A stretch of 64,000 bases of DNA from Minisyncoccota bacterium (GCA_035546575.1 DASZWN010000003.1:1530-65529), one strand, 5' to 3'; shown: positions 164 to 17,878, counted from the stretch's first letter. Notes: generated by a model not told the origin, from the sequence alone. Program-made: numbers and translations.

Positions 164-249
164 GGGCACGTGGCGGAATCTGGTATACGCGTACGTCTCA
201 GAAGCGTATCCCGTAAGGGTTGGGAGTTCGAGTCTCCCCGTGCCCACCA
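164..249 (+). tRNA. tRNA-Leu, anticodon CAG, type II with long variable arm, CCA encoded
   Basis: Manual fold: acceptor GGGCACG/CGTGCCC (7 bp); D-stem GCG/CGC with a 12-nt GG-containing loop; anticodon stem TACGT/GCGTA with loop CTCAGAA (U33, anticodon CAG, A37); long variable arm CCCGTAAGGG; T-arm GGGAG-TTCGAGT-CTCCC; discriminator A; 3' CCA. Confidence 0.85.
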
Positions 250-253
250 GACT

Positions 254-1585
254 ATGGAACCATGGAAGGATTATTTTAAAGGCAAGCGCATTACCGTAAT
301 GGGCCTTGGGCTCCTCGGCCGCGGAGTGGGGGATGCTGCATTTTTGGCGCCTCTATGCGCCGAACTTATGGTGACCGACCTCAAAAGCGAGGCCGAGCTT
401 GCCGACTCGCTGAGACAGCTGAAAGATTTTAAAAATATTACGTTCCATTTAGGCGGTCACCAGCTCATAGACTTCCAGAACCGCGACCTGATACTCAAGG
501 CCGCAGGAGTACCGCTCGACTCGCTATATATCGCGGAGGCAAAGAAAAATAATACACCAGTGCGCATGAGCGCCGACCTTTTTATGGAGCTCTCTGGAGT
601 CACCTCAGTAGGTATCACCGGCACGCGCGGCAAGTCAACCGTAACGCACATGCTCGCGCATATACTCAAGACTGCCGGTAAAAAGGTTTTACTTGGCGGC
701 AATGTGCGCGGTGTCTCAACCTTGGCGCTTTTGCCGGAAGCAACACCTGAGGCAATTGCCGTACTTGAGCTGGACTCATGGCAGTGCCAAGGGCTCGCAG
801 ACGGAAAGCTGAGCCCTCATGTGGCGGTGTTTACCACTTTTCTGCCCGACCACATGAACTACTACAAAAACGACATGCGATTGTACTTTGCCGACAAGGC
901 GAACATATTTTTGTATCAAAAACCAACCGACATGCTTGTGGTAGGTGAGCAGGTTGCACCTCTTATAAAAGAGTATGGTTATCAAGACAAGGTGGTAGCA
1001 CAGACAGTTACTGCGGGAGTAAAAGATATTCCGGCGCAGTGGCATCTCAAAGTTCCCGGCGAGCATAATCGCTACGACGCCGGGGTTGCTGCAGCTGCGG
1101 CTCGCGTACTTGGTATCAATGACAACACTATTAAAGAGGCGCTGGAGTCGTTTGAGGGGGTGCCAGGCCGCTTGCAGTTTATACGAGAAGTCCGCGGAAT
1201 CAAAATCTATAACGACACTACGGCAACCGTGCCAGAGGCAACCATAGCAGCACTCGAAGCGCTTGATCCAAATGATAAAAAGAATGTCGTCCTTATCATG
1301 GGCGGTGCCGACAAAGGGCTCGATATGTCGCGACTGGTCGCGACAATCCCTAGGCACTGCAAAAAAGTGCTGCTGCTCGCAGGCACCGGGAGCGAACGTA
1401 TCAAATCTGAGCTTCCTAACAGTTTGATATATCAAACTACGACTGATGCTGTGTCCGCTGCTCTTGCAGCTGCAACAACCGGCGACATTATTCTCCTCAG
1501 TCCGGCCTTTGCCTCATTTGGCATGTTTAAGAACGAGTACGATCGCGGCGAGCAGTTTAACGCTATCGTGGCGGCACTAGCATAA
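254..1585 (+). CDS. murD: UDP-N-acetylmuramoyl-L-alanine--D-glutamate ligase
   Basis: Mur ligase family; ATP-binding GITGTRGKST motif; domain order typical of MurD. The ORF-track start at 170 overlaps the tRNA; the ATG at 254 (MEPWKDY...) is the plausible start. Confidence 0.88.
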   Translation: MEPWKDYFKGKRITVMGLGLLGRGVGDAAFLAPLCAELMVTDLKSEAELADSLRQLKDFKNITFHLGGHQLIDFQNRDLILKAAGVPLDSLYIAEAKKNNTPVRMSADLFMELSGVTSVGITGTRGKSTVTHMLAHILKTAGKKVLLGGNVRGVSTLALLPEATPEAIAVLELDSWQCQGLADGKLSPHVAVFTTFLPDHMNYYKNDMRLYFADKANIFLYQKPTDMLVVGEQVAPLIKEYGYQDKVVAQTVTAGVKDIPAQWHLKVPGEHNRYDAGVAAAAARVLGINDNTIKEALESFEGVPGRLQFIREVRGIKIYNDTTATVPEATIAALEALDPNDKKNVVLIMGGADKGLDMSRLVATIPRHCKKVLLLAGTGSERIKSELPNSLIYQTTTDAVSAALAAATTGDIILLSPAFASFGMFKNEYDRGEQFNAIVAALA

Positions 1586-2346
1586 TGATAGGCATTTTTG
1601 ACTCCGGCTCGGGCGGGCTCACAGTACTTAGGGCAATCCGCAACGTTTTGCCTTCGTGCGACGTGCTCTATTTTGGCGATATTAAACATGCACCGTACGG
1701 CTCTAAATCGCGCGAAGAGTTAAGCAATCTCACGATTGACGCCATTAAGCTTTTATACGATCGCGGCGCACGCAACATAGTGAGTGCATGCAATAGTGTC
1801 TCGGCATCGCTCGCAGTCTCTTTGCTCGATGCATCTGATATCGCACCTACGCACTTAATAGAGATGGTGGGGCCGACAGTCGCGTATTTTAAAGGCTCCG
1901 GTGCACGGATTCTTTTGTGCGCGACCCCGGCAACTATCGAATCGACAATTTACCAGAGCGCATTCCGTATGATCGGTAAAAACATTACAACAGTAGCAAT
2001 CTCCGAACTTGCAGGTGCCATTGAATTTGCAAAATCTAGAGAAGAGATACAAAAAATACTAACAGAAGCTTTTGCAAACATCTCGCTTGCCGATTTTGAC
2101 GTACTTATCTTAGGTTGTACGCACTATCCGCTTGTGCTCGACTTATTTACCCAGGTACTACCCAAAACAATTGCAGTGTTTGATCCGGCACTGGCAGTTG
2201 CGGAGCGTGTCGAGCGGCAGTTTTGGCCGCAAGAAGCAGGGGATGCCATAACCCAGTTTGTAATCAGCAAGGATTCCGAGCCTTTTAGAACTTTTGCTGC
2301 AAAGCTTTTCCCTGGGCAAAAGTATACGGTCGAAGTGATAGAGTAA
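1585..2346 (+). CDS. murI: Glutamate racemase
   Basis: N-terminal IGIFDSGSGGLTV, Cys-containing SACNS motif, and GCTHYP second catalytic Cys motif; start overlaps the murD stop (ATGA). Confidence 0.85.
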   Translation: MIGIFDSGSGGLTVLRAIRNVLPSCDVLYFGDIKHAPYGSKSREELSNLTIDAIKLLYDRGARNIVSACNSVSASLAVSLLDASDIAPTHLIEMVGPTVAYFKGSGARILLCATPATIESTIYQSAFRMIGKNITTVAISELAGAIEFAKSREEIQKILTEAFANISLADFDVLILGCTHYPLVLDLFTQVLPKTIAVFDPALAVAERVERQFWPQEAGDAITQFVISKDSEPFRTFAAKLFPGQKYTVEVIE

Positions 2347-2350
2347 TACC

Positions 2351-3655
2351 ATGCAAGGCAAGAAGATATACATCGTCGGTATCGGCGGCATAGGGCTCTC
2401 CTCGCTTGCGCAGCTCTATCTCCATGAGGGAGCGCGCGTCTCTGGCTCGGACCGTTCCGACTCCCCAACAACCGAGCTCTTGCGCTCAAAAGGCGTCGAG
2501 GTCTTTGTAGGGCACCATGCAGAGCAAGTGCCAACCGACGCCGATTTGCTTGTGTACAGCGATGCGGTTCTAGAGGGCTCCGAGGGGTTTGTGGAGCGCG
2601 TACAAGCACAAGATCTGGGGATCCCCGAACTTTCCTACGCAGAAGCGCTTGGCAAAATGACCGAAGGCAAAAAGGTTATTGCTATCGCTGGTGCGCACGG
2701 CAAGACAACCACGACCGCGATGACTATCGATGTGCTAGAGGCTGCAGGGCTCGACCCCACGGGAGTGGTGGGCTCTTTGCGCGCAAAAACCAAAAGCAAT
2801 TTCCGCGCAGGTAAAGGGGAGTACTTTGTAGTAGAGGCAGACGAGTATCTTCGGCACTTTCTTAACTACACGCCGTATATTTTGGTAATTACTAATATCG
2901 AGGCCGATCACCTCGATTACTTTAAAGACCTCGCCGATGTGCAATCAGCATTTAGAGAGCTTGCGCAAAAAATCCCAGCCGACGGATTTGTGGTGTGCGA
3001 TACCTCTAGCCATGAAGTGCAGCCGGTTATTAAAGATCTGGAGTGCAATCTCGTTGATTATCGATCGCATTTTGACCCAGACCTGGCTCTCAGAGTGTTG
3101 CCTCTTCACAGAATAAACGCTGCTGCGGTGATGGCGGTGGCCCACATTGTGGGGATAGACGAGATGGTGGCACGTAAAGCGCTTGAGGATTTTGTCGGCA
3201 CGTGGCGCCGGTTTGAATATAAAGGAAAGACAGCGAGCGGCGCCTTGGTGTACGACGACTATGGTCACCATCCGACCGAAATTTCAACAACGCTCAAAAG
3301 CGTGCGCGAGCAATTTCCAGACAAGCGGATTATTGTTGCCTTCCACCCGCACCTCTACAGCCGCACTAAGGCCCTGATGGCAGAGTTTGCAAAAGCGTTT
3401 GTTGATGCCGATGAGATTTTGATCGCACCTATCTTTGCAGCAAGAGAAAAGCCGGACCCGACAGTTACTAGTGCAATTCTTGCAGAGCGCATTAAGGCAG
3501 AAGGAAAAAACGCGCAGGCTGTAGACTCGCTCGAGGCCGTAGAGGACTATATTAAAAACAAGACACAAGAGGGAGACGTGGTAGTGACCATGGGTGCCGG
3601 AGACATATACAAAGCAGGGGAGAGAAGCCTGCCTGCCGGTAGGCAGGGCTCTTGA
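2351..3655 (+). CDS. murC: UDP-N-acetylmuramate--L-alanine ligase
   Basis: IGGIGLSSLA N-terminus, P-loop GAHGKTTTT, Mur ligase central and C-terminal domains. The C-terminal tail ...RSLPAGRQGS is encoded by the 20-nt palindromic repeat at 3628-3647. Confidence 0.9.
   Translation: MQGKKIYIVGIGGIGLSSLAQLYLHEGARVSGSDRSDSPTTELLRSKGVEVFVGHHAEQVPTDADLLVYSDAVLEGSEGFVERVQAQDLGIPELSYAEALGKMTEGKKVIAIAGAHGKTTTTAMTIDVLEAAGLDPTGVVGSLRAKTKSNFRAGKGEYFVVEADEYLRHFLNYTPYILVITNIEADHLDYFKDLADVQSAFRELAQKIPADGFVVCDTSSHEVQPVIKDLECNLVDYRSHFDPDLALRVLPLHRINAAAVMAVAHIVGIDEMVARKALEDFVGTWRRFEYKGKTASGALVYDDYGHHPTEISTTLKSVREQFPDKRIIVAFHPHLYSRTKALMAEFAKAFVDADEILIAPIFAAREKPDPTVTSAILAERIKAEGKNAQAVDSLEAVEDYIKNKTQEGDVVVTMGAGDIYKAGERSLPAGRQGS
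3628..3647. repeat. 20-nt palindromic repeat CCTGCCTGCCGGTAGGCAGG, copy 1 (inside the murC 3' coding end)
   Basis: Identical to the 20-mer at 43993-44012; close variant at 4985-5005. Stem CCTGCC/GGCAGG with loop TGCCGGTA. Confidence 0.7.
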
Positions 3656-3695
3656 AACCAAATAAAAGGTAGTAGTGTTCTATAAAAATGAAGCG

Positions 3696-3717
3696 GGCCA
3701 CCCTTAAATGGGTGGCC
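3696..3717. terminator. GC-rich hairpin between convergent murC and the small minus-strand ORF
   Basis: GGCCACCC-TTAAAT-GGGTGGCC, 8-bp stem; no clear U-tract, so it may be bidirectional or Rho-assisted. Confidence 0.4.
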
Positions 3718-3736
3718 GCGCCAATTCTGGGTGGCA

Positions 3737-3991
3737 CTAGGCCGCCTGAATTTCTTCCAGCGTCTTGAAGTACTCGCCAGGGTTTTTAGTAGTAAACGGC
3801 TTATGAGCCGTATCACTGACGCATGCCCAACGAAAAGGATCAACTGGCTCACAGAATGCAGGCTCTTTGCATGCATTCCGGTTGCAACAGAAATCCTTGC
3901 GGCTGTTCCATGTGCGACGGATCTCCTCCGCCGTTTCAGGAGAAATCTCCGTGTAGGAAAAATCATCAGCCTTAATGGCTTGGCTTTGCAT
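3737..3991 (-). CDS. Small Cys-rich hypothetical protein (about 85 aa from the internal Met; ...DFCCNRNACKEPAFCEPVDPFRWAC...)
   Basis: The ORF 3737..4078 overlaps the rsmI start head-to-head if read from 4078; the internal ATG at 3989-3991 gives a non-overlapping product. No recognisable family. Confidence 0.35.
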   Translation of the reverse strand: MQSQAIKADDFSYTEISPETAEEIRRTWNSRKDFCCNRNACKEPAFCEPVDPFRWACVSDTAHKPFTTKNPGEYFKTLEEIQAA

Positions 3992-4076
3992 TACCAACTC
4001 CTTTTCTGTGAGGAACTTTGAAAGAATTTTACTGAACTTATTTGAAAAAGTCAATATTTTGTAGTAGGGTAGAGGC

Positions 4077-4781
4077 ATGCAAAACCCCTTCGACCCTGCT
4101 CAGGGTAAACTGTTTGTAGTGGCAACCCCCATCGGCAACCTCGAGGACATTACCTTGCGGGCTCTGCGCGTACTCAAAGAGGCCGATGTTATTGCCTGTG
4201 AGGACACGCGTGTCACAAAAAAGCTCTTGGCTCATTTTGACATCCACACGCCTACCGTTGCGTTCCACGCCAACAGCGGGGTAAAAGGGTTTGAAAAAAT
4301 CGTGGCGCTTTTGGAGGAGGGCAAGCATGTGGTACTTGTGTCTGATGCCGGCACGCCGGGGGTATCCGACCCAGGGCTTGAGCTTGTCTCGGTGGTCCGC
4401 GAACGTCTGCCAGAGGCTACCGTAGAGGCAATTCCTGGACCCTCGGCGCTTGTGGCGGCCCTTTCTATCGCAGGTCTGCGGGCCTCCTCATTCACTTTTT
4501 ACGGCTTTTTGCCGCTCAAAAAGGGCCGGGAGACTATATTTAAAGAGATAGCGGCAAGCGATCGAGCAAGCGTGATGTATGAATCGCCGCACCGGATACT
4601 CAAAACGCTGGGGAGCCTCAAGACATACCTTGAGGAGGAGCGCCGTGTGGGCATTTTCCGCGAGCTCACCAAGCTGTATGAAGAGTCCATAGTCGGTTCG
4701 GCAGCCGAGGTGCTCAACTATTTTGAACAAAACCCCGACAAAATCCGCGGAGAATTTGTGGTGATAGTAGAAGGACGGTAG
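4077..4781 (+). CDS. rsmI: 16S rRNA (cytidine1402-2'-O)-methyltransferase
   Basis: Tetrapyrrole-methylase fold with the RsmI signature LFVVATPIGNLEDITLRA...IACEDTR. Confidence 0.85.
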   Translation: MQNPFDPAQGKLFVVATPIGNLEDITLRALRVLKEADVIACEDTRVTKKLLAHFDIHTPTVAFHANSGVKGFEKIVALLEEGKHVVLVSDAGTPGVSDPGLELVSVVRERLPEATVEAIPGPSALVAALSIAGLRASSFTFYGFLPLKKGRETIFKEIAASDRASVMYESPHRILKTLGSLKTYLEEERRVGIFRELTKLYEESIVGSAAEVLNYFEQNPDKIRGEFVVIVEGR

Positions 4782-4790
4782 AATAGAGAC

Positions 4791-5072
4791 ATGTCTAAAG
4801 AGATGACGGTGATCGTGCTGGGCATCTGGCTTATTGCTGTGCCGTACCTAGGTGTGCCGGGCTCATGGCGCACGGTCATTGTTATAGGAACCGGCATCAT
4901 CGTTGCCGGAGTAGGATTTTTCTTGCGCGCAGAAGCGATTGGCCGCAGTGGTGCTCGCCATCAACATAGAACATTCGTAGAAAACCTGCCTACCGGTCAG
5001 GCAGGCGCAGATATGGCTGCTTCGGAATCAATGATGCATGACCACAAAGAAAGAATCACCTCGCTCAACTAA
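4791..5072 (+). CDS. Small 2-TM membrane protein; its C-terminal tail reads through a palindromic repeat copy
   Basis: N-terminal 50 aa are hydrophobic (GIWLIAVPYLGVPGSW..., SPW-repeat-like). The ...NLPTGQAGA... segment is encoded by the repeat at 4985-5005, in the same frame as the MurC tail LPAGRQG. Overlaps the next gene by 35 nt. Confidence 0.4.
   Translation: MSKEMTVIVLGIWLIAVPYLGVPGSWRTVIVIGTGIIVAGVGFFLRAEAIGRSGARHQHRTFVENLPTGQAGADMAASESMMHDHKERITSLN
4985..5005. repeat. Variant copy of the palindromic repeat (CCTGCCTACCGGTCAGGCAGG)
   Basis: Same CCTGCC/GGCAGG arms around a (T)ACCGGT(CA) core, versus TGCCGGTA in the other two copies. Confidence 0.6.
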
Positions 5073-6198
5073 ACATGCTCTCGCTATCTTTGGCGCGTCT
5101 GCTTTTGTGGTAGGCGCGGCTTTTGTCTTTGCGTATGGGCCGCTGCCACAATTCCTTTCAGTTACATACTCAGAGGGCACGGCAACCACCACACAGTCGA
5201 ACAACCCAGATGTACCGCCGCCTCCGCCGCCGCTCGACAAAATGGCCTATGACCTAAAGCTACTCGCGCTCGCCCACGTTGCAACCTCAAGCCCGTGGTA
5301 CAGCGCATTCCTCCAAGGCACCACAACGATAATGCTAGCGGGTGCTACCACAACAACCAAAGTTACTCCGAAGCTGTGGCCGGTACATGCCGTGTATCCG
5401 GCCGATGGTCGCGCACTTTTGCCGTTTAACAGGATCGTCGCGTATTACGGGAACTTTTATTCCCGCGGCATGGGCGTATTAGGCCAATATGACCCGGAGG
5501 AGATGCTTGCGCGCTTGGCCTCAACAACCGCGCAGTGGGCTGCGGCCGACCCCTCCACACCTGTTATCCCCGCACTCCACTACATTGTTGAGGTTGCTCA
5601 AGCGTCGGCAGGCAAAGACGGTATGTATCGTGCGCGCATGCCCGATGATCAGATCGAAAAGGCTCTTGAGTTGGCAAAACAAATTAACGGCGTGGTCTTT
5701 CTCGACTTTCAGGTAGGGTTGAGCGATGTGCAGACTGAGCTCCCGATCTATGAAGAGTATCTCAAACTGCCAAACGTGCAGTTGGGTATCGACCCGGAGT
5801 TTGCGATGAAAACCAGCGGCGCCAAGCCGGGGCGCGTCATTGGCACGCTCGATGCTGCGGATATTAATTGGGCGATACAGTATCTCTCTAAACTCGTAGA
5901 AAAAGATAATCTGCCTCCAAAAATCCTGATGATCCACCGTTTTACGATGGACATGGTCACCAACTATAAACAGATAAAACCGACGCCGCAGGTGCAATTT
6001 GTCATGGATATGGATGGCTGGGGTGAGCAGGCAAGAAAAGAAAATACCTATCAGCTTGCAGTGCAGGGGCAACCAGTGCAATTTACAGGCTTTAAGTTAT
6101 TCTATAAGAACGACCTTCTTCCGCCTTCAACCGGCATGATGACGCCCGAGCAAGTACTCAAACTCACACCCGCCCCCGTCTACATTCAGTACCAATGA
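5038..6198 (+). CDS. Hypothetical membrane-anchored protein (N-terminal TM, Pro-rich linker, about 300-aa globular domain)
   Basis: Single N-terminal hydrophobic helix ALAIFGASAFVVGAAFVFAY, then a PPPPPP linker; no confident family match from sequence alone. Confidence 0.5.
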   Translation: MTTKKESPRSTKHALAIFGASAFVVGAAFVFAYGPLPQFLSVTYSEGTATTTQSNNPDVPPPPPPLDKMAYDLKLLALAHVATSSPWYSAFLQGTTTIMLAGATTTTKVTPKLWPVHAVYPADGRALLPFNRIVAYYGNFYSRGMGVLGQYDPEEMLARLASTTAQWAAADPSTPVIPALHYIVEVAQASAGKDGMYRARMPDDQIEKALELAKQINGVVFLDFQVGLSDVQTELPIYEEYLKLPNVQLGIDPEFAMKTSGAKPGRVIGTLDAADINWAIQYLSKLVEKDNLPPKILMIHRFTMDMVTNYKQIKPTPQVQFVMDMDGWGEQARKENTYQLAVQGQPVQFTGFKLFYKNDLLPPSTGMMTPEQVLKLTPAPVYIQYQ

Positions 6199-7229
6199 AA
6201 AAGGACATAGTCGTTTGGTGTTTTGTAGGAGCGCTTATTATCGCGGGTATTGTAGCTGCGATGTGGCCGAAGGCGCTCGCAGAAATTGCTACAGACACCT
6301 CACATATTTTTGGCACACCAACCATACACAACCCGTCGGTACTGTTTGTGGGCGACATTATGCTCGACCGCGACGTGGCGGTACATGCCCAGCAGGCGGG
6401 GGACGATGCGCTTTTTGCAGGCGCTGCAGACCTCTTTAGCGGCTACGATTTGCGCATTGGAAACTTGGAGGGCACTATAACCACCAACAAGTCTATAGCG
6501 CAGCAGGACCACACCATACTGCGCTTTACCTTTGACCCGCGTTTTGCAAAGGTCTTAGCGCAAGCGGGTTTTGATGCTCTGAGTCTGGCCAACAATCATT
6601 CGCTGGACTTTGGCGAGTTTGGGTATGACGACACCGTAAGCTACCTCAGCAAACAAAATATTCCTGCGTTTGGCTCGCCCTTTAATGAGCAGCATTTGGC
6701 GGTGCGCGTCTCGGCCTCGGGCCTGCGCCTTTGCATGCTGGGATACATGGACCTTTTTAAATCCGACCCAACGAGCATTATTAACAAAATACAAGATATA
6801 CGGGGTGAGTGCGACAAGGTAATCGTTATGCCGCACTGGGGGGTCGAGTATCAGCACAGCCCGACCGCGCAGCAGGTATCGCTGGCACACGAGTTTATCG
6901 ACGCCGGTGCCGATGTGATAATCGGCTCGCACCCGCATGTGGTGGAGCCGCTAGAGATATATAAAGGCAAAGCGATCTTTTATTCGCTCGGCAACTTTAT
7001 CTTCGACCAGCATTGGCAACCAGAAGTCATGCGCGGACTCGCGGTTGGCATAGAATTTGGTGAGAAATCTACGCGCTTTACGCTCACGCCGGTCTCTACC
7101 AATATGGAAGCAAAAGTAGCAGACGAGGTAGTAACAAAAGCTGTACTAAACGATGTAGTAACGCCCGACCTCTCAGTCGACATGGCTAACTCGATCCTCA
7201 CGACAAGCTCGTTTGAGCTTCCGTATTAG
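6195..7229 (+). CDS. CapA/PgsA-family metallophosphatase-like protein (poly-gamma-glutamate capsule biosynthesis family)
   Basis: N-terminal TM; motifs GDIMLDR, LANNHSLDFG, MPHWGVEY, GSHPHVVEP and FYSLGNFIFDQ are typical of CapA family proteins. Confidence 0.75.
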   Translation: MKKDIVVWCFVGALIIAGIVAAMWPKALAEIATDTSHIFGTPTIHNPSVLFVGDIMLDRDVAVHAQQAGDDALFAGAADLFSGYDLRIGNLEGTITTNKSIAQQDHTILRFTFDPRFAKVLAQAGFDALSLANNHSLDFGEFGYDDTVSYLSKQNIPAFGSPFNEQHLAVRVSASGLRLCMLGYMDLFKSDPTSIINKIQDIRGECDKVIVMPHWGVEYQHSPTAQQVSLAHEFIDAGADVIIGSHPHVVEPLEIYKGKAIFYSLGNFIFDQHWQPEVMRGLAVGIEFGEKSTRFTLTPVSTNMEAKVADEVVTKAVLNDVVTPDLSVDMANSILTTSSFELPY

Positions 7230-7233
7230 AACG

Positions 7234-7263
7234 AAAACACCACCCTCTCGGGTGGTGTTTTCT
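7234..7263 (+). terminator. Rho-independent terminator after the capA-like gene
   Basis: AAAACACCACCC-TCTC-GGGTGGTGTTTT, 12-bp stem followed by TTTTCT. Confidence 0.75.
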
Positions 7264-7292
7264 GTATTTCGTCTCTACCGGCTCCACCCATC

Positions 7293-7309
7293 GCGAGATG
7301 GGACTTGTC
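7293..7309. repeat. 17-nt perfect inverted repeat arm (GCGAGATGGGACTTGTC); partner at 7417-7433 lies inside the tRNA-like element
   Basis: Exact reverse complement of 7417-7433, 107 nt away. Locally also forms the hairpin CCCATC-GCGA-GATGGG (7287-7302). Confidence 0.7.
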
Positions 7310-7380
7310 GCTCACAAGTATAGCAAAGCAGTGATTTTGGTCAATAGCTCAAAAGAGCTTGATTAATAGGCATGTTCTGA

Positions 7381-7448
7381 AGCCGGTGGAGGGGGTCGAA
7401 CCCTCAAGACGAAAATGACAAGTCCCATCTCGCAACCATGCCACCGGC
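7381..7448 (-). ncRNA. tRNA-like element: canonical acceptor stem and T-arm, but D/anticodon region does not fold as a tRNA (possible rearranged or pseudo-tRNA)
   Basis: Minus strand: GCCGGTG...GAGGG-TTCGACC-CCCTC-CACCGGC-T. Acceptor is 7 bp perfect and the T-loop is TTCGACC, but the 36 nt between them have no 5-bp stem with a 7-nt loop. Internal positions 16-32 are the inverted-repeat arm. Confidence 0.4.
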
Positions 7449-7494
7449 TGAGGTGCACTATAGATGAAGAGAATTTGAAGTCAAATTTTAAGGA

Positions 7495-7500
7495 TATACT
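7495..7500 (+). promoter_or_regulatory. -10 hexamer TATACT 6 nt upstream of the GTG start at 7507 (leaderless-type)
   Basis: TATACT-aaagcc-GTG; part of the recurring pattern in this window. Confidence 0.35.
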
Positions 7501-7506
7501 AAAGCC

Positions 7507-8127
7507 GTGGAAGATCCCTCCCATTTCCAACCGACTTACGAACACAAACATTGGCATTGGCTGCTGTGGCTAGGCCTGTTTACTTTTGCCCTTTTAGCCG
7601 GCGGGTTTGTGTATGTGGGGTATTTCCAAAATCCTCAGGCGCCAATTATCACCACGAGTGTCGAAGATTCTAGTTTGCCCTCCGGGGCAGACCCGCAAAC
7701 TTTCCAGGTAGTAGGCATGTTCTATACGAAAGACGCAACACATGTCTGGACGACTTATACAGGTCCAGCTGATCCGGAACCTCCTCGTCTCGTGGATGCA
7801 GACCCTGCGACTTTTCAATTAGTTCAGGATGGTTTTGAGTATGGCATCCATGCCAGAGATAAAAACAATTTGTTTTGGGGAGGGGATAACGTTACGCCTG
7901 ATGGTTTTGATATTGCCTCAATGCAAATCATAGGAAACGCCGGAGGCGATATTGTAGAACATGTTTACATTAAGGATAAAGATGCGGTATATGCAGCTTT
8001 CCTTGGATCAAAATTCCAGAAAGTTTCTGACGCTGACCCGGCAACCTTTATTCTTGCCCCAGGTCAATCCACGTATGACGCACAAGACAAAAATCACAAG
8101 TATTTACGGGGCAAAATAGTTGAGTAG
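7507..8127 (+). CDS. Membrane-anchored protein with three DKNYY-like repeats (paralog 1)
   Basis: N-terminus MEDPSHFQPTYEHKHWHW plus a TM helix; repeats DPQTFQVV...KDATHVW, DADPATFQLV...DKNNLFW, DADPATFILA...DKNHKYL. Confidence 0.55.
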   Translation: MEDPSHFQPTYEHKHWHWLLWLGLFTFALLAGGFVYVGYFQNPQAPIITTSVEDSSLPSGADPQTFQVVGMFYTKDATHVWTTYTGPADPEPPRLVDADPATFQLVQDGFEYGIHARDKNNLFWGGDNVTPDGFDIASMQIIGNAGGDIVEHVYIKDKDAVYAAFLGSKFQKVSDADPATFILAPGQSTYDAQDKNHKYLRGKIVE

Positions 8128-8133
8128 TTTTAT

Positions 8134-8778
8134 ATGGAAGATCCGTCTCATTTTCAACCAACCTACGAGCACAAATATTGGCACGTTGTGCTGTGGGGTG
8201 GGCTGTTTTTAGCCGCAGTCCTAGCCGGCGGATATGTGTATGTAATCGCTCAGAATTCTGTGGACTCAGCCGCTCAGCTTACAGACGAACAAACTACCAT
8301 ACCCACGAGCAAATTTGTAAATGAGATTCAACTTCTTGCAGCTACCCAACTTACGTTTTCTTCATCAACTGAGGTGTGGTGGCTGTCCTATGGGGATTTA
8401 TTGATCTTTCCTAGACTTGAAAATGGGGAAGGTTGCTTTTTGTATCAGCGTGAAGATTTATGCAAACTCATAACTATCTCAGGTACGGAGTACACCGCAT
8501 ATATAAAGCCAGAGTCCAGCTCCGAGATAGAAAGTGCCTACAAGAAGTTCCTTAATGAACAGGGTTATGTTTTTATATATGAAATTGCAAAATCCCAGTT
8601 AAGCTCTGTATATGAAAAAATACTAGGTAGTAAGGTCCAACTAGTCGTTGTTGGCTCGGAGCTAGTACACGCCATCTCTTCGACTAATAAAAAAGATGTA
8701 AATGTTCCGCCGGACGATATGAGATTTGCGGTGTTTGTAAGTGATGTGTTTGACGTAAACGACACGACCACCCCCTAA
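8134..8778 (+). CDS. Membrane-anchored protein, paralog 2 (conserved N-terminus and TM, divergent C-terminal domain)
   Basis: N-terminus MEDPSHFQPTYEHKYWH is about 80% nt-identical to the gene at 7507 over the first ~50 nt; visibly AT-richer coding region. Confidence 0.5.
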   Translation: MEDPSHFQPTYEHKYWHVVLWGGLFLAAVLAGGYVYVIAQNSVDSAAQLTDEQTTIPTSKFVNEIQLLAATQLTFSSSTEVWWLSYGDLLIFPRLENGEGCFLYQREDLCKLITISGTEYTAYIKPESSSEIESAYKKFLNEQGYVFIYEIAKSQLSSVYEKILGSKVQLVVVGSELVHAISSTNKKDVNVPPDDMRFAVFVSDVFDVNDTTTP

Positions 8779-8792
8779 GTCTCTAATCAAAG

Positions 8793-8801
8793 TGATATAA
8801 T
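8793..8801 (+). promoter_or_regulatory. Extended -10 TGATATAAT ending 7 nt before the ATG at 8809 (leaderless-type)
   Basis: TGATATAAT-cgggcta-ATG; no Shine-Dalgarno. Confidence 0.35.
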
Positions 8802-8808
8802 CGGGCTA

Positions 8809-10638
8809 ATGCAGGATGATCAGAAAATAAACTATTTTGCGGCAACTAACAGCCGCGGGAAGCAGGCGCCTTTTGGCATCAAGAGCAAGGACCGCGCTCG
8901 CCACATGTACATTATCGGCAAAACCGGTATGGGCAAGTCGACCATGCTCGAGAACATGGCTATCCAAGACATCCGCAACGGCGAGGGTATGGCCTTTATC
9001 GACCCGCACGGCTCTACCGCCGATCGTATTTTGGAATACGTTCCCGAGCACCGCATCAAAGACGTGCTTTATTTTGCGCCGTTTGATATGGACTATCCGG
9101 TTGCGTTTAACGTGATGGAGGACGTGGGCTACGACAAACGCCACCTTGTGGTCTCGGGCTTGCTCTCGGCATTCCGCAAAATTTGGGTAGACGCGTGGAG
9201 CGCCCGCATGGAATACATTCTCTCTAACACTTTGCTTGCGCTCCTGGAGTACGACGGCTCAACCTTGCTCGATGTTAACCGCATGCTGGTTAATAAGGCA
9301 TTCCGCAAAAAAGTTGTCGACAATATTAAAGACCCGACCGTGCGCGCATTCTGGGTAGAGGAGTTTGCCAACTACACCGACCGCTACACCCAAGACGCAA
9401 CACCGGCAATCCAAAACAAGGTCGGCCAATTTACCAGCAACCCCCTGATCCGCAACATCGTCGGGCAACCGAAGTCATCTTTTGATATCCGCAAGATGAT
9501 GGATGACAAAAAGATTCTCATCATCAACCTCTCCAAAGGCCGCATGGGCGAGGTAAACGCAACGCTGCTCGGCTCGATGCTCGTCACCAAGATTTATTTG
9601 GCGGCGATGTCGCGCGCCGATGTGCCTGCGGAGACGCTTGCCAAGCTCCCGCCGTTTTACCTGTACGTAGACGAGTTCCAAAACTTTGCCAACGAGTCGT
9701 TCTCTGACATTTTGTCCGAGGCTCGCAAATACAAGCTCAACCTCATTATTGCGCACCAGTATGTAGAGCAGATGGAGGAGGAAGTGCGCGACGCCGTGTT
9801 CGGCAACGTGGGTACCACAGTGACATTCCGCGTCGGGCCCTTTGACGCCGAGACGCTGGAAAAAGTGTTTGAGCCGCAATTTACTGCAACCGATTTGGTA
9901 AACCTCGGGTTTGCGCAGATTTACTTAACGCTCATGATCGATGGGGTAGGGTCGACGCCATTTTCTGCCACGACGCTGCCGCCGTTTGATCCGCCGCCCG
10001 AGAAGCATGTCGACAAAGTGATTGAGAACTCGCGCAAAGAGTTTGGCAAACCGCGCGCCGAGGTCGAGAGTGCAATTATTAAGTGGAACGAGGCTGATAT
10101 TGATAGTCCTGCTGCCCGTTCTGCCGCTGCGCTTAAAAAAGAAACGGGAACTTCTGCGCCCGCTAGAGCAACCTCCTCCGCGCCTAAAGCGGCAGCTCCT
10201 CGCGAGAAACCAGCAGAAGTAGTGCGCGAAGTCGTTAAAGAAACTGTAGTAGTTGCCGCGCCAGTGCCAGTAGTAAGGCAAGAAGCTCCGCGCCCAAAGC
10301 GTGAGGAGCCTAGGGTGCCACGCCCGGAACCGGAGCTGCCACCGCTTGGCGGCGCTACAAGCTTGCGTGAGGCGCTTATGCAAGTAACCAGCCATAAGCC
10401 GCAAGAACCGGCGCCTAAGCCCGCTGCACCACAACCGTCAAAACCGAAGCAGCAATCGCAAGGAACAGAACTAAAAGATGTACTCCATGCGGTGGCGCCT
10501 AAAGCAGAAGCTAAACCCGCAGCATCTAACCACACAACAGAAGACAAGCCTGTAGGATTGCCAGAAGATGTTTTGCGGTCTATGCTTGCCGTCGATGAGA
10601 CAGACGACGAACCAGGCGACCCAATCGAAAGAAGGTAG
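8809..10638 (+). CDS. P-loop NTPase of the FtsK/HerA/TraD-VirD4 superfamily (DUF87/AAA_10-like) with a C-terminal Pro/Ala/Lys/Glu-rich low-complexity tail
   Basis: Walker A IIGKTGMGKST and Walker B-like FYLYVDEFQNFA...IIAHQY. The last ~180 aa are low complexity (PKAAAPREKPAEV...PRPEPELPP...). Confidence 0.65.
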   Translation: MQDDQKINYFAATNSRGKQAPFGIKSKDRARHMYIIGKTGMGKSTMLENMAIQDIRNGEGMAFIDPHGSTADRILEYVPEHRIKDVLYFAPFDMDYPVAFNVMEDVGYDKRHLVVSGLLSAFRKIWVDAWSARMEYILSNTLLALLEYDGSTLLDVNRMLVNKAFRKKVVDNIKDPTVRAFWVEEFANYTDRYTQDATPAIQNKVGQFTSNPLIRNIVGQPKSSFDIRKMMDDKKILIINLSKGRMGEVNATLLGSMLVTKIYLAAMSRADVPAETLAKLPPFYLYVDEFQNFANESFSDILSEARKYKLNLIIAHQYVEQMEEEVRDAVFGNVGTTVTFRVGPFDAETLEKVFEPQFTATDLVNLGFAQIYLTLMIDGVGSTPFSATTLPPFDPPPEKHVDKVIENSRKEFGKPRAEVESAIIKWNEADIDSPAARSAAALKKETGTSAPARATSSAPKAAAPREKPAEVVREVVKETVVVAAPVPVVRQEAPRPKREEPRVPRPEPELPPLGGATSLREALMQVTSHKPQEPAPKPAAPQPSKPKQQSQGTELKDVLHAVAPKAEAKPAASNHTTEDKPVGLPEDVLRSMLAVDETDDEPGDPIERR

Positions 10639-11401
10639 TGACAACCGCTTCCCCGCAAAAGCACAACAAAGTGAGCTCTCCGGGCCGTTAGGCCGAGTCT
10701 TACTCACTTTCTTATGCTTTTGCGGGACGCTGCTCACTCCGTGCATTGCACTTGCTGCTCTGCAGATCACCCATGTTGAGTACGATCCGCCGGGCAGTGA
10801 CACCGGCCGCGAGTGGGTAGAGATAACCAACAAAGGCGATACAGCTGTTGATGTTTCTAAATTTAAATTTCTTGAGGCGGGAGTAAACCACAAACTCACC
10901 CTTGCCTCCGGGAGCGCATTGCTCGCACCAGGCGCTGCCGCAATTATTGCGAGCGACCCAAATACCTATTTGAGCGACCATTCCGATTCTGCGGCAAACG
11001 TGTTTAAGAGCTCGTTTTCGCTCTCAAACACTGGCGAGGAGCTCGCGCTTGTAAACGCGAGCGGGACGGTTGAGTACACCATATCGTACACTGCTGCGCT
11101 GAAACCTGCCGCAGCGCCAGCTAAAAAAGCTTCTACAAAAACCACCACGACAAAGTCAAAAGCAACGTCAACAAAAGCAATTGCAGCTCAGGCAACATCG
11201 TACGACAACTCAGACAACTCCGGAGCGGTTATACAAAGTGTAAAGAATATCCCGCCGATGATCGGGTGGGCGGCTGGCCTCGCGGCTATAGTCGCTCTCG
11301 GCATAGCTGGCGCGCTGTATGCGCGAGCAGGGAGTAAGACTTTCTTGTCGGCAGAACCATCTGCAGATACTGAAGAGGAATTCAGTATCGTTGAGAACTA
11401 G
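10568..11401 (+). CDS. Lamin-tail-domain (LTD) protein with signal/TM N-terminus and C-terminal TM anchor
   Basis: LTD signature ITHVEYDPPGSDTGREWVEITNKGDTAVDVSKFKF...LAPG; Thr/Lys-rich linker; C-terminal hydrophobic segment. The only in-frame starts (ATG 10568 and 10595) lie inside the 3' end of the ATPase gene, giving a 44-71 nt overlap. Confidence 0.6.
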   Translation: MFCGLCLPSMRQTTNQATQSKEGSDNRFPAKAQQSELSGPLGRVLLTFLCFCGTLLTPCIALAALQITHVEYDPPGSDTGREWVEITNKGDTAVDVSKFKFLEAGVNHKLTLASGSALLAPGAAAIIASDPNTYLSDHSDSAANVFKSSFSLSNTGEELALVNASGTVEYTISYTAALKPAAAPAKKASTKTTTTKSKATSTKAIAAQATSYDNSDNSGAVIQSVKNIPPMIGWAAGLAAIVALGIAGALYARAGSKTFLSAEPSADTEEEFSIVEN

Positions 11402-11412
11402 CGAAAACATTG

Positions 11413-11418
11413 TAGAAT
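11413..11418 (+). promoter_or_regulatory. -10 hexamer TAGAAT 8 nt upstream of the ATG at 11427 (leaderless-type)
   Basis: TAGAAT-aagctttt-ATG; no Shine-Dalgarno. Confidence 0.35.
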
Positions 11419-11426
11419 AAGCTTTT

Positions 11427-12287
11427 ATGGGAGCTCAAGATAATCCTAAACTCGCTCTGGTAACCGGCGGCGCCGGCTTTATAGGCTCGCATCTGTGCGA
11501 GCGTTTGGTTAAAGGCGGATATCGTGTAATCAGCCTCGACAATTATTTTACCGGCTCGAAAGAGAACCACGTTGCCGGAGTCGAGTACCGAGAGGGCCAC
11601 ACAAAGGATATCGAAAAGCACATTCCAGAGACTCCGGACATCATCTATCATCTTGGAGAATACTCCCGGGTTGAGATAAGCCTCACTGAGCCTGCGCTTG
11701 TGTGGGACTTAAATAAAGATGGCACATTTGGTGTGTTGGAATTTTGGCGCAAGAAAAAGCCAAAGCTTATCTATGCAGGGTCATCTACAAAATTTGGCGA
11801 TGGAGGTTTGGGTCGCGCACAAAGTCCCTATGCATGGAGCAAAGCAAGTAACACAGAATTGGTAAAAAATTATGCAGATTGGTACGGGCTCCAATATGCG
11901 ATCACCTATTTTTATAACGTATATGGACCAAGAGAGCGTCCTGCGAACCAGTATGGGACGCTTATAGAAACATTCCGAAGACAAAAGTTGGAAGGAAAGC
12001 CGCTAACGGTAGTTGCCCCGGGCACCCAAAAGCGAAACTTTACACATGTCGGTGACATTATCGAGGGTCTGATGTTGGTGGGCGAGAAAGGGGAAGGTGA
12101 TGATTTTGGCCTAGGCAGTGAAGAGTCCTTTTCGATACTTGATGTGGCAAAGCTGTTGGGAAGCGAAATTGTTATGTTGCCAGAGCGTGCCGGAAACCGA
12201 ATGGAATCTACGCTTGATACAAGCAAAGCAGAAGCGCTTGGTTGGAAAACAGCACATAGTCTAAAGGAATACGTGGCGCAGATATGA
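11427..12287 (+). CDS. NAD-dependent epimerase/dehydratase (extended SDR; UDP-sugar epimerase or decarboxylase-like)
   Basis: Rossmann motif VTGGAGFIGSHL and catalytic YxxxK (SPYAWSK). Confidence 0.8.
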   Translation: MGAQDNPKLALVTGGAGFIGSHLCERLVKGGYRVISLDNYFTGSKENHVAGVEYREGHTKDIEKHIPETPDIIYHLGEYSRVEISLTEPALVWDLNKDGTFGVLEFWRKKKPKLIYAGSSTKFGDGGLGRAQSPYAWSKASNTELVKNYADWYGLQYAITYFYNVYGPRERPANQYGTLIETFRRQKLEGKPLTVVAPGTQKRNFTHVGDIIEGLMLVGEKGEGDDFGLGSEESFSILDVAKLLGSEIVMLPERAGNRMESTLDTSKAEALGWKTAHSLKEYVAQI

Positions 12288-13486
12288 AGCGCGTACTTAT
12301 ATTCAGCCTCGCGTACTACCCAAAGTTTGTCGGGGGAGACTCTGTTGCAATAAGAGAGATCACGGACCGCACTAACCCCGATGAACTAGAGTTCCATATG
12401 GTAACGCTGCGCTTTGACTCAACTCTGCCTAAGGTAGAGCGGGTGGGGAATGTACTTGTGCACCGCATCGGATTTACGCGGGTCAACCCCAACTCTGCCG
12501 ACCTCAAGAAGTTTCCTCTCCACTACAACAAATATTTGTTCCAGTTTACGGCAGCATTCAAGGCGGCATCTTTGCATCATCGCTACAAATACGACGGCAT
12601 CTGGGCGGTGATGGCGCACTCAGCTGGTGTGCCCGCTGCGATCTTTAAGCTATTTCACTCCAATGTGCCGTATCTACTGACCCTGCAAGAAGGGGATCCG
12701 CCGCACTATATTGAGCGAGTTATGCGCCCGGTATGGCCGCTCTTTAAGCGAGCGTTTACAAGTGCCGACATGGTGCAAGCTATTTCAGTATTCTTGAGCG
12801 ACTGGGCTCGCCGAATGGGCTACAAAGGCCCGCTTGAGATAATCCCCAATGGCGTGGATATACGACGCTTTACCGGCCCTCAGGAAAGGTTTGAGGTTCG
12901 CAAAGCGCTTAATATACGAGAGAACGAAACGATCCTTATCACCTCATCGCGCTTGGTGCGCAAAAATGCTGTCGACGACGTAATCCGTGCGATGGCGCTG
13001 CTACCGGCAACCGTGCATTTTTTGGTGCTGGGTGTAGGGCCAGATGAAGCAAAACTAAAACAACTAGCACATGACCTGGGAGTAGCGCCGCGTGTAAAAT
13101 TCCTTGGGCACATCTCCCACGATAAACTGCCAGCATATTTGCAGGCATCGACTATTTTTATCCGTCCAAGCCGCTCGGAAGGCTTTGGCAACTCTTTTGT
13201 AGAAGCGATGGCGGCCGACTTGCCGGTTATTGCCACTCAAGAAGGGGGGATTGCAGACTTTTTGTTTGACCGGAAGCGCAACCCAGATATGCCAACCACG
13301 GGCTGGGCAGTAGACAAAGACTCGCCAGAGCAAATCGCTGCCGCTGCGGAGGATATTTTGAGCAACCCTGAGCAAGTAAAAAAGGTTATCAGTACTGCAC
13401 ACAAGCTTGCGGTCGAGAAATACGACTGGGAGATTGTCGCACGTGCTATGCGTCAGCGAGTCTTCAATCTATTACTCAAACACTAG
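12284..13486 (+). CDS. Glycosyltransferase family 4 (GT-B fold)
   Basis: C-terminal GT4 motif RPSRSEGFGNSFVEAMAADLPVIAT. Confidence 0.8.
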   Translation: MKRVLIFSLAYYPKFVGGDSVAIREITDRTNPDELEFHMVTLRFDSTLPKVERVGNVLVHRIGFTRVNPNSADLKKFPLHYNKYLFQFTAAFKAASLHHRYKYDGIWAVMAHSAGVPAAIFKLFHSNVPYLLTLQEGDPPHYIERVMRPVWPLFKRAFTSADMVQAISVFLSDWARRMGYKGPLEIIPNGVDIRRFTGPQERFEVRKALNIRENETILITSSRLVRKNAVDDVIRAMALLPATVHFLVLGVGPDEAKLKQLAHDLGVAPRVKFLGHISHDKLPAYLQASTIFIRPSRSEGFGNSFVEAMAADLPVIATQEGGIADFLFDRKRNPDMPTTGWAVDKDSPEQIAAAAEDILSNPEQVKKVISTAHKLAVEKYDWEIVARAMRQRVFNLLLKH

Positions 13487-13499
13487 TTACAATAAAGGC

Positions 13500-14510
13500 A
13501 TGAAAATACTCCTGGCCACTCCTCTGTATCCGCCGGACTCGGGCGGCCCTTCAACCTACGCAAAGATGCTGGTAGACGAGTTGCCCAAACGGGGCATTGA
13601 GGTGGTGTTGTTAAAGTTTGGCGAAGTGCACAACCTACCGCCGGTTGTGCGGCATATAGTCTACTTTTTTAAATGCATCAGTCGCGCTTGGGGGGTTGAT
13701 GCGATATATGCACTCGATACTATGAGTGTCGGATGGCCTGCGTTCTTTGCTTCGGTGTGTGCGTGGAAAAAATTTGTAGTGCGTGTTCCAGGGGATCATA
13801 TCTGGGAGCAAGGGGCGCAGCGTTTTGGCATCACAGCTTCTCTTGATGAGATGCAGCGATTTTCTTTGCGGTGGCACCCGTACCTACTATTTTTAAGAGT
13901 GTTGCAGCATTTCGTCATTCGATTTGCAAACGTAGTAGTTACGCCCAGCGAATACATGAAAAAGATTGTTATAAGTTGGGGTGCTCGTCCTGAGCGCGTA
14001 CAAGTAATCTATAGCAGTGTACATTTGCCAGTTGCATTTACTTTGCCCTCAAAGAGACCCGAGGGGTTTTTAGTGGTAACCATCGCGCGTCGTGTACCGT
14101 GGAAGGGGATAGAGGCTCTTGAGCGTGTGGTTGCTCGCGAGAGCGGCTGGGCCTTTAAACTGATTGTCGACTTGCCACATGTTGAAGCCATGGGCTGGGT
14201 TAAAGCGGCCGATGTATTTGCGCTCAATTCCACATACGAGGGCCTTTCACACGCACTCGTCGAGGCTATGGCACTTGGCACCTCCGTGGTGGCCACTAAC
14301 GTGGGCGGCAATCCTGAACTTGTCACATCGGGCAAAAATGGACTGCTTATTCCGCCCAAGGATGACGAAGCGCTATATGCTGCCCTTAAAAATATTGAAA
14401 CCCATCCAGAAGAGGCCAGAAAGCGGGTTGAGCATGCTAAAGAATACACGCAGCAATTTTCAATTGATATAACTATTGAAAAGTTGGTCAATCTGCTCAA
14501 GACAATATGA
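13500..14510 (+). CDS. Glycosyltransferase family 4
   Basis: MKILLATPLYPPDSGGPSTYA...EGLSHALVEAMALGTSVVATNVGG. The ATG at 13500 is preceded by AAAGG and follows the upstream stop; the ORF-track start at 13407 overlaps the previous gene. Confidence 0.75.
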   Translation: MKILLATPLYPPDSGGPSTYAKMLVDELPKRGIEVVLLKFGEVHNLPPVVRHIVYFFKCISRAWGVDAIYALDTMSVGWPAFFASVCAWKKFVVRVPGDHIWEQGAQRFGITASLDEMQRFSLRWHPYLLFLRVLQHFVIRFANVVVTPSEYMKKIVISWGARPERVQVIYSSVHLPVAFTLPSKRPEGFLVVTIARRVPWKGIEALERVVARESGWAFKLIVDLPHVEAMGWVKAADVFALNSTYEGLSHALVEAMALGTSVVATNVGGNPELVTSGKNGLLIPPKDDEALYAALKNIETHPEEARKRVEHAKEYTQQFSIDITIEKLVNLLKTI

Positions 14511-15586: not shown

Positions 15587-15593
15587 AAATCAC

Positions 15594-15599
15594 TATACT
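15594..15599 (+). promoter_or_regulatory. -10 hexamer TATACT 6 nt upstream of the ATG at 15606 (leaderless-type)
   Basis: TATACT-cacccc-ATG. Confidence 0.35.
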
Positions 15600-15605
15600 C
15601 ACCCC

Positions 15606-17500: not shown

Positions 17501-17503
17501 GAG

Positions 17504-17509
17504 TATACT
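17504..17509 (+). promoter_or_regulatory. -10 hexamer TATACT 6 nt upstream of the ATG at 17516 (leaderless-type)
   Basis: TATACT-taccct-ATG. Confidence 0.35.
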
Positions 17510-17515
17510 TACCCT

Positions 17516-17878
17516 ATGGCCTACATATATTTATTACTCGCGTTTGTCATTAACGCTCTTGCTAGCATCTTACTAAAGCTCGATGCGGCAGGGGCACCGC
17601 TCTCGTTTGAGCGGGGACTTAGTGCGACTATCTTTGAGCACAAACTACTCATGTTAGGGCTCATATCTTTTGCTGCAAATGTGATCTTTTATTGGTTGGC
17701 GCTTAAGTCGCTCCCCTTAAGCGTGGCCTACCCCACTATGGTGGGCGGTAGTTTTATTATTGTGCTTGGCTACGCAGCGTTTGCGCTGCACGAAGGAGTC
17801 TCTTTGACCCAGATTACCGGGTACGTCTTGATTTTTGTGGGGATTTTGCTCGTGCTTTTGAAGGGCGCGAACTCATAA
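17516..17878 (+). CDS. Small 4-TM DMT/SMR-superfamily transporter (EamA-like; ArnE/ArnF-like undecaprenyl-phosphate-sugar flippase subunit candidate)
   Basis: 120 aa, four predicted TM helices, the size class of ArnE/ArnF/SMR proteins, set among glycan genes. Confidence 0.55.
   Translation: MAYIYLLLAFVINALASILLKLDAAGAPLSFERGLSATIFEHKLLMLGLISFAANVIFYWLALKSLPLSVAYPTMVGGSFIIVLGYAAFALHEGVSLTQITGYVLIFVGILLVLLKGANS

Follow-up and report, generated by a model that had tools for sequence, protein, structure and literature searches.

In a Candidatus Paceibacterota (CPR) metagenome-assembled genome (locus tags VHD31_035xx), a 228-bp block between a CapA gene and a gene of the DKNYY family appears to be a mutational scar: with slightly better than even confidence, we read it as a redundant tRNA gene with its own promoter that was overwritten by short-range template-switch copying. 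We analyzed the 64,000-nt stretch of DNA in which the block lies (the window); its features are collected in Table 1. The NCBI (PGAP) annotation has no feature between CapA, whose locus number (...03585) we took from its neighbors ...03580 and ...03590, and the next gene (...03590). The block is base-for-base identical in two independent Logan assemblies, which rules out an assembly artefact, and ∼80% of 7263-7449 can be assigned either to tRNA parts or to local copies. The element had been described, from the sequence alone, as lying directly after a terminator and before a leaderless-type promoter, and both are in place: the CapA terminator ends at 7262, and the −10 box TATACT (7495-7500) lies six nt ahead of the GTG at 7507.

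Table 1 Features of the CapA/DKNYY interval (positions in the window)
Feature	Position	Strand	Remarks
G+C-rich hairpin, CapA terminator	7233..7262		13-bp stem, 4-nt loop
Mosaic insert, lineage-specific, 228 bp	7263..7490		between CapA terminator and DKNYY gene promoter
TTTCGTCT, inverted copy of 7407-7414 inside T	7267..7274	+	8/8
TCTCTACCGGCTCCACC, inverted copy of CapA 6941-6957	7272..7288	+	16/17; shuffles 1/200
Left arm, 17-nt inverted repeat	7293..7309	+	with 7287-7292 forms hairpin CCCATC-GCGA-GATGGG (7287-7302)
Promoter-like site P2, TTGACC-16-TGcTATACT	7317..7344	-	10/12, extended −10; hexamers overlap weak copies of DKNYY 8086-8103
Inverted copy of CapA 3' end 7204-7219	7346..7361	+	15/16; shuffles 2/200; itself a small hairpin
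Direct copy of DKNYY 7709-7723	7364..7378	+	14/15, 12 contiguous; shuffles 5/200
tRNA-like element T, 69 nt	7381..7449	-	acceptor, T-arm, central 9-bp hairpin with 8-nt loop CUUGUCAU; then TCA, not CCA
Direct copy of DKNYY 8083-8101	7405..7423	+	17/19; shuffles 0/200; inside T
Right arm, 17-nt inverted repeat	7417..7433	+	inside T, D-region to loop
Promoter-like site P1, TTGACT-16-TATAGT	7457..7484	-	10/12; back-to-back with DKNYY promoter
−10 box TATACT and GTG start of DKNYY-family gene	7495..7509	+	leaderless layout, common to relative L003

Read on the minus strand from 7449 to 7381, T runs AGCCGGUGG CAUGGUUG CGAGAUGGGA CUUGUCAU UUUCGUCUU GAGGG UUCGACC CCCUC CACCGGC U. It has the perfect 7-bp acceptor stem (GCCGGTG, 7448-7442, with CACCGGC, 7388-7382) and the canonical T-arm (GAGGG-TTCGACC-CCCTC, 7405-7389) that the sequence-only reading had recognized, the latter with a 5-bp stem and a 7-nt loop of the form TTCRANY. 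The acceptor stem can be extended to 8 to 9 bp (AGCCGGTGG/CCACCGGCT), the discriminator is T (U73) at 7381, and the 31 nt of acceptor and T-arm are undamaged. A 22-mer of T, GGGTTCGACCCCCTCCACCGGC, occurs unchanged in 14 real tRNA-Leu(CAA) genes of many different phyla and in one viral tRNA-Thr(UGU), which has the same 5' acceptor strand and U73. Because it matches 15 real tRNAs exactly, the tRNA origin of the ends is not a matter of chance: the acceptor and T-arm of T derive from genuine tRNAs. T is followed by TCA in the genome, whereas the window's real tRNA-Leu(CAG) gene (164-249) encodes its CCA end. The latter gene has no clear promoter ahead of it, unlike T, and is overlapped by the longest-ORF call of a MurD-like gene (170-1585), so the true MurD-like start must lie further downstream.

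The 36 nt between these ends had been judged unable to form D and anticodon arms. Canonical arms are indeed absent by the usual bacterial tests (based on Rfam RF00005 and ARAGORN). In place of a D-arm with a 3- to 4-bp stem, a 7- to 11-nt loop, and U8/N9 before it, T has only 2 to 3 bp closing a 4-nt loop, UGGU, and the 8-9 linker is missing; in place of an anticodon arm with a 5-bp stem, a 7-nt loop, U33, and a purine at 37, it offers 9 bp closing an 8-nt loop or, alternatively, C37 and a 4-bp stem made of G-U pairs. A noncanonical fold is nevertheless possible. The same 36 nt allow a 3-bp mini D hairpin (UGGU loop) and the 9-bp stem with the 8-nt loop, the central hairpin being a clean 9 to 10 bp, and a compact cloverleaf with the T-arm enforced (8-bp acceptor, four arms) comes to −30.6 kcal/mol, compared with −30.7 for the minimum free energy (MFE) fold. 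T alone folds stably (z = −2.8).

No detector accepts T as a tRNA by its standard settings. ARAGORN made no call at T in its default and -ps modes; with -ps80, it reported "tRNA-?(Thr|Asp)(tgtc)", the loop being 8 nt long, and in its metazoan-mitochondrial mode (-mt), it reported a D-replacement-loop tRNA. No Rfam family matched T at gathering thresholds, the best subthreshold hit being tRNA-Sec (RF01852) at 24.2 bits against a gathering score of 47. We rejected tRNA-Sec, which is characterized by an 8/5 fold, a 6-bp D-stem, a long variable arm, and a UCA anticodon: besides the low score, the D stem and variable arm are unaligned and there is no UCA. A tmRNA or permuted tmRNA, with a tRNA-Ala-like domain carrying G3:U70, a tag reading frame, and pseudoknots, was also rejected, as the ARAGORN tmRNA modes and Rfam were negative and the third pair is C-G, with no G3:U70. 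An intron-containing, split, or permuted tRNA, proposed in the sequence-only reading, fared no better: apart from a spurious tRNA-Stop(tta) call containing a 62-nt intron, ARAGORN -i found nothing, and the Rfam score stayed far below threshold. The ARAGORN and Rfam searches that the same reading had recommended called no standard cloverleaf, no credible intron-containing tRNA, and no tmRNA. Its idea of a degenerate or rearranged tRNA gene fits best, the ends being genuine, no detector accepting the whole, and relatives having no tRNA at the site, but the integration attached to it left no sign, with no integrase in 0-19 kb; flipping the repeat-bounded segment, as in a single inversion, restores no tRNA either.

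The inverted repeat was correctly described before, including the hairpin beside its left arm. The 17-mer GCGAGATGGGACTTGTC lies at 7293-7309 on the plus strand and, perfectly matched, at 7433-7417 on the minus strand, the arms being 107 nt apart. No other perfect inverted repeat with a gap of 20 to 300 nt in the window is as long, and none of 200 Markov shuffles reached 17 nt (maximum, 15). Two more blocks to the left match T: TTTCGTCT and ACCGGCT at 7277-7283, the latter a 7-nt direct repeat of 7443-7449. These T/left-copy matches (17 + 8 + 7 nt) contain no mismatch, whereas the patches derived from the flanks differ at ∼7% of positions. The shared blocks are collinear rather than nested, and therefore not all of them can be helices of one RNA; we rejected a single RNA with all pairings, which would need a pseudoknot whose 2- and 6-nt linkers span helices of ∼20 and 17 bp. 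The left copy was also considered as a retro-copy of a circularly permuted tRNA with a CCA tail (TTTCGTCT-ACCGGCT-CCA-...-17mer), a reading that we likewise rejected. The patch at 7272-7288, which overlaps the one at 7267-7274 by TCT, includes the "ACCGGCT-CCA" resembling the 3' end of a tRNA; since this patch is an inverted copy of CapA, the tRNA-like end is CapA sequence.

Much of the remaining block is likewise matched by nearby sequence. We counted two inverted CapA pieces and two to four DKNYY pieces in addition to the 17-mer, the range reflecting two weaker matches that are individually not significant (7312-7321, identical to DKNYY 8094-8103 at 10/10, and 7331-7342, inverted relative to 8086-8097 at 11/12). 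Each of the four stronger flank-derived copies (Table 1) is rare in shuffles, its score being reached by 0 to 5 of 200. One 21-nt stretch of the DKNYY gene is matched by three patches whose orientation alternates. The strongest, at 7405-7423, covers the loop and 3' strand of the central hairpin of T and with them the apparent TGT anticodon. Counted by a uniform blastn criterion, the block has four local pairs, compared with none in 177 of 214 control tiles, and tiles with at least four are confined to a repeat-rich coding stretch at 57 to 61 kb. Five local pairs in all (four by blastn) exceed the number of copies expected by chance, as template switching would predict; these patch statistics are local and post hoc, having been designed after the first matches were seen, and at the scale of the whole window, 12-mer matches are at chance level. 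The CapA patches are sense in a minus-strand RNA, so the orientation of the patches follows no antisense or regulatory logic.

The block is specific to one lineage. It is absent from the eight relatives examined that have the same gene order (rsmI, a small ORF, a 380-aa ORF, CapA, a TrwB-like ATPase, an LTD protein, an epimerase, and glycosyltransferases; L012 and L013, two contigs with the same CapA protein, were counted once). In five of the eight, the ATPase gene follows CapA after 9 to 40 nt; the other three carry other inserts, a 67-aa ORF with a DKNYY-family gene (L003) or an unrelated 187-aa gene (L012, L013). None of the eight has a tRNA or tRNA-like block at this site, which answers the earlier proposal to look for an intact tRNA in syntenic regions. 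The closest relatives are ∼64 to 66% identical in CapA, and the region is missing there. The genes at 7.5 to 11.4 kb had been thought to look accessory, a view that does not hold: only the DKNYY genes (7507-8778) vary among relatives, within a variable stretch of ∼7230-8808, and the genes at 8809-11401, including those for the ATPase and the LTD protein, are in conserved synteny. One genome carries the element.

The junction between CapA and the TrwB-like ATPase (7229-8808, compared with L003, L004, L007, L009, L011, L012, L031, and L032) is a hotspot for differing small inserts; in Paceibacterota it holds nothing, the 67-aa ORF with a DKNYY gene, the unrelated 187-aa gene, or the 228-bp block. 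The two DKNYY-type genes here, 7507-8127 and 8134-8778, are tandem paralogues with a nearly identical N-terminus (MEDPSHFQPTYEHK...) and a transmembrane segment, and the first alone keeps the DKNYY-family C-terminus. L003 (1883-2427) has one DKNYY orthologue at the same site, and the closest other homologues are at most 41% identical, so the family is fast-evolving.

No homologue of the element turned up in exact-pattern searches of genome, metagenome, and viral collections. The T-arm 22-mer gave none in genome contigs and viral scans, the 17-mer gave none in metagenome and viral scans (the two metagenome matches lie in coding DNA and are due to chance), and BLAST against phages and plasmids was negative for such a homologue. 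A viral contig (L028) with an identical acceptor, T-arm, and U73 was considered as evidence of a phage origin and dismissed: it is 65% G+C, its D and anticodon arms are unrelated, and it shows no significant protein similarity to seven window ORFs at 4791-11401 (best E value, about 0.05). Three further candidates were weighed on their anatomy and rejected: a T-box-like UGGA:UCCA pairing, as there is no regulated downstream gene; a DGR template/variable repeat, as there is no reverse transcriptase and the patches are too short; and a MITE with target duplication, as there are no other copies. A literature search for D-arm-less tRNAs in CPR returned nothing relevant.

The anatomy, the tRNA derivation of the ends, the absence from the relatives, and the statistical excess of local copies are shown; how the copying worked, in what order its steps came, and that no function was selected, we infer as follows. 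T would be what is left of a genuine tRNA gene that had a promoter of its own, P1, and ends resembling tRNA-Thr or tRNA-Leu(CAA), with U73. This gene would have arrived in, or been duplicated into, the variable spot between CapA and the next gene in one Paceibacterota lineage only, and its redundancy would have left the interior free to be overwritten. Template switching during replication or repair may then have copied nearby stretches of 10 to 20 nt into the spacer in either orientation, drawing on CapA, the 3' end of the DKNYY gene, and the tRNA remnant itself. One event would have copied 17 nt of the T interior, inverted, 107 nt away, to give the perfect repeat; others would have turned the anticodon and variable region of T into DKNYY sequence and assembled P2.

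Published work documents template switching as a one-step source of perfect nearby hairpins (PMC8794818, PMC10710096, PMC5941160) and also of new hairpin-RNA genes (PMC10710096, de novo miRNA birth). The block resembles the template-switch mutations described by Monttinen and Loytynoja (PMC8794818), those behind de novo miRNA birth (PMC10710096), and those underlying bacterial inverted repeats (PMC5941160) in its perfect inverted copy ∼100 nt away, its short local copies in both orientations, and its new long helix and promoter-like site, gained in one or a few steps; it differs in that some patches are direct, the events cannot be replayed on a phylogeny for want of close relatives, and a tRNA gene in a CPR bacterium is involved. 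Like tRNA pseudogenes and truncated remnants, T has a genuine acceptor and T-arm, falls below detector thresholds, is lineage-specific, and is presumably redundant, but its interior was apparently replaced by a stretch copied out of a neighboring protein gene, rather than deleted or point-mutated, and it keeps a near-consensus promoter that would start at its first base. If the scar reading is true, the locus offers a clean bacterial (CPR) example of short-range template switching with three outcomes in one place: the interior of a tRNA destroyed, a perfect 17-bp helix created, and a near-consensus promoter built from coding fragments. Such outcomes are the proposed raw material for the birth of noncoding RNA genes, and they carry a practical warning against taking every perfect inverted repeat or tRNA-like half between genes for a functional RNA. 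As a single locus in one metagenome-assembled genome, its importance is modest.

The promoters give reason for hesitation. Sites matching the sigma-70 consensus at 10/12 or better number eight in the window (both strands, 128 kb), and two of them fall in these 228 bp, both on the minus strand. The predicted start of P1, 7 to 8 nt downstream, is the first base of T (A7449), and P2 is predicted to start (∼7310-7309) where the 17-mer complement begins. Genes at 7495-7509, 8795-8811, 11413-11429, and L003:2425-2460 start 6 to 9 nt past a TATAAT-like box with no Shine-Dalgarno sequence, a layout which suggests that leaderless mRNAs are widespread in the lineage; since genes typically start at this distance from the −10 box, the spacings of P1 and P2 are meaningful. 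On the minus strand, the CapA terminator has a shorter stem and a U-rich tail (TTTTCGTT), as read off the sequence, and could also end minus-strand transcripts. Transcription from the predicted P1 and P2 to this shared terminator is likely. The best promoter match in the window lies elsewhere (55116-55143, minus strand, TTGGCA-16-TATAAT, 11/12), antisense inside a plus-strand gene at 55031-55909.

Two near-consensus promoters, each placed to start at a module boundary, are unexpected for junk, and an undamaged acceptor and T-arm, a clean central hairpin, a compact cloverleaf isoenergetic with the MFE fold, and mismatch-free T/left-copy blocks also weigh against the scar reading. The promoters, the terminator, the intact minihelix, and the mismatch-free blocks would fit a functional small-RNA locus, the main rival, which we regard as unlikely. 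P1 would drive a leaderless T with a trailer and P2 an RNA of ∼75 nt, both ending at the shared terminator. The tRNA-like end would serve stability or processing, the body and trailer would pair with mRNA of the divergent DKNYY gene, and the P2 RNA would sequester T over 17 to 20 bp. The predicted T:P2-RNA duplex is worth −53.5 kcal/mol. In the predicted 7449→7233 transcript (−96.7 kcal/mol, z = −7.6), the 5' half of T pairs with the left copy over ∼33 nt, 20 of them contiguous pairs, in competition with the tRNA-like fold; the 17-bp helix that had been expected of a transcript across both arms is thus predicted, but as part of this longer, imperfect pairing. The minus-strand RNA is complementary to DKNYY mRNA at 8083-8101 (17/19), 7709-7723 (14/15), and 8094-8103 (10/10), the second of these making the trailer antisense, as it is a direct copy of the gene. 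RNAduplex runs of the RNA against all window mRNAs were uninformative, giving unrealistic full-length duplexes.

Against such a locus, the best mRNA match is broken into 6 + 5 + 6 bp, and its target is the 3' end of the ORF rather than the start. The CapA patches have the wrong sense for antisense action, and the hexamers of P2 are by-products of patches. The element is carried by one species and has no conservation or covariation in its favor, and the relative L003 has the DKNYY gene without it. The earlier candidate of a structured tRNA-like RNA, framed as it is by two strong promoters and a terminator, keeps a low probability. T mimics an acceptor and T-arm within a larger structured RNA, as do the tRNA-like domain of tmRNA and the YrlA Y RNAs (PMC4201824). 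Unlike tmRNA, it has no Rfam match, G3:U70, tag ORF, or pseudoknots, and unlike Y RNAs, it lacks the Ro-binding-stem layout of the ends.

A variant that combines copying with function, to which we give little credence, is a newly born, tRNA-scaffolded regulatory RNA: template switching would have turned the redundant tRNA gene into a leaderless RNA driven by a promoter. The intact acceptor/T-arm minihelix would recruit tRNA-processing or CCA-adding enzymes or stabilize the RNA, the copied-in segments would be antisense to the adjacent DKNYY surface-protein mRNA, and a second promoter from the same process would yield a 17- to 20-nt anti-RNA that titrates it.

We consider it improbable that the block is an inverton, in which a site-specific recombinase would flip 7310-7416 between the 17-bp repeats and turn P2 toward the DKNYY surface-protein genes. 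As in fimS, short perfect inverted repeats bracket a strong promoter beside surface-protein genes, here pointing away from them, and the downstream genes are fast-evolving, membrane-anchored paralogues. However, the ORFs scanned at 170-18839 include no recombinase (nor a reverse transcriptase or integrase); three independent assemblies show one orientation, the Logan contigs running through without a break; and the DKNYY gene already has a conserved leaderless promoter of its own and lacks the Shine-Dalgarno sequence that a leadered transcript would call for. Moreover, the repeat is one of several local copies, the rest of which a switch would leave unexplained.

A working reduced tRNA, D-arm-poor with an 8-nt anticodon loop and charged for decoding or for a non-ribosomal aminoacyl transfer by the cell-envelope genes around it, strikes us as very improbable. 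Charging might be, for example, by ThrRS, whose identity elements in E. coli include G1-C72, C2-G71, G35, and U36. T was first taken as Thr(UGU) from the loop CTTGTCA, an assignment now weakened; the UGU lies within the DKNYY copy, and consequently the isotype cannot be read from the anticodon. The remaining Thr hints are U73, G1-C72, and C2-G71, with the 22-mer matching tRNA-Leu(CAA) too. The relaxed and mitochondrial ARAGORN calls favor this reading, together with the intact acceptor and T-loop, a UGGU loop that could supply the elbow GG, the strong promoter, and neighbors that include Mur ligases, a racemase, CapA, and glycosyltransferases. T also resembles the D-arm-lacking mitochondrial tRNAs (ARWEN "D-replacement loop" class) in having an acceptor, a long anticodon-type stem, a T-arm, and a short connector for the D-arm. 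Yet its host is bacterial, its loop is 8 nt long (or has C37 on a stem made of G-U pairs) and lacks a proper U33/R37 setting, it fails every standard tRNA threshold, relatives do without it, and CCA is not encoded.

Just as improbable is the footprint of a mobile element or prophage in a tRNA gene (an att remnant or MITE): the tRNA fragment does adjoin variable genes, and the ACCGGCT direct repeat does lie outside the inverted repeats, but neither an integrase or transposase nor a direct att duplication was found, phages and plasmids showed no similarity, there is no second copy of the 17-mer or T-arm in the window, viral contigs, or metagenome scan, nor any integrase paired with a direct repeat of a tRNA 3' end or second piece of T elsewhere in the window, nine unmatched nt separate the direct from the inverted repeats, and the left ACCGGCT is explained by the CapA patch. 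The inverton, the reduced tRNA, and this footprint thus each lack one or more of the defining features that were tested.

Three minor observations concern the surroundings. In L032 (2306-3756), several short ORFs stand in place of intact CapA and ATPase genes, and the breaks look like assembly frameshift errors and not biology. At 57500-61600, several diverged direct-repeat families (55 to 144 nt, 60 to 87% identity) lie in a stretch of short ORFs, which resembles a repeat-module surface protein gene or what decay or frameshifting has left of one. Finally, the start region of the DKNYY gene (CTAAAGCC-GTGGAAG, 7499-7511) resembles the plus-strand end of T (CTGAAGCCGGTGGAGG, 7376-7389) at about 12/14 positions with one gap, a resemblance that may reflect microhomology serving to join the tRNA piece here.
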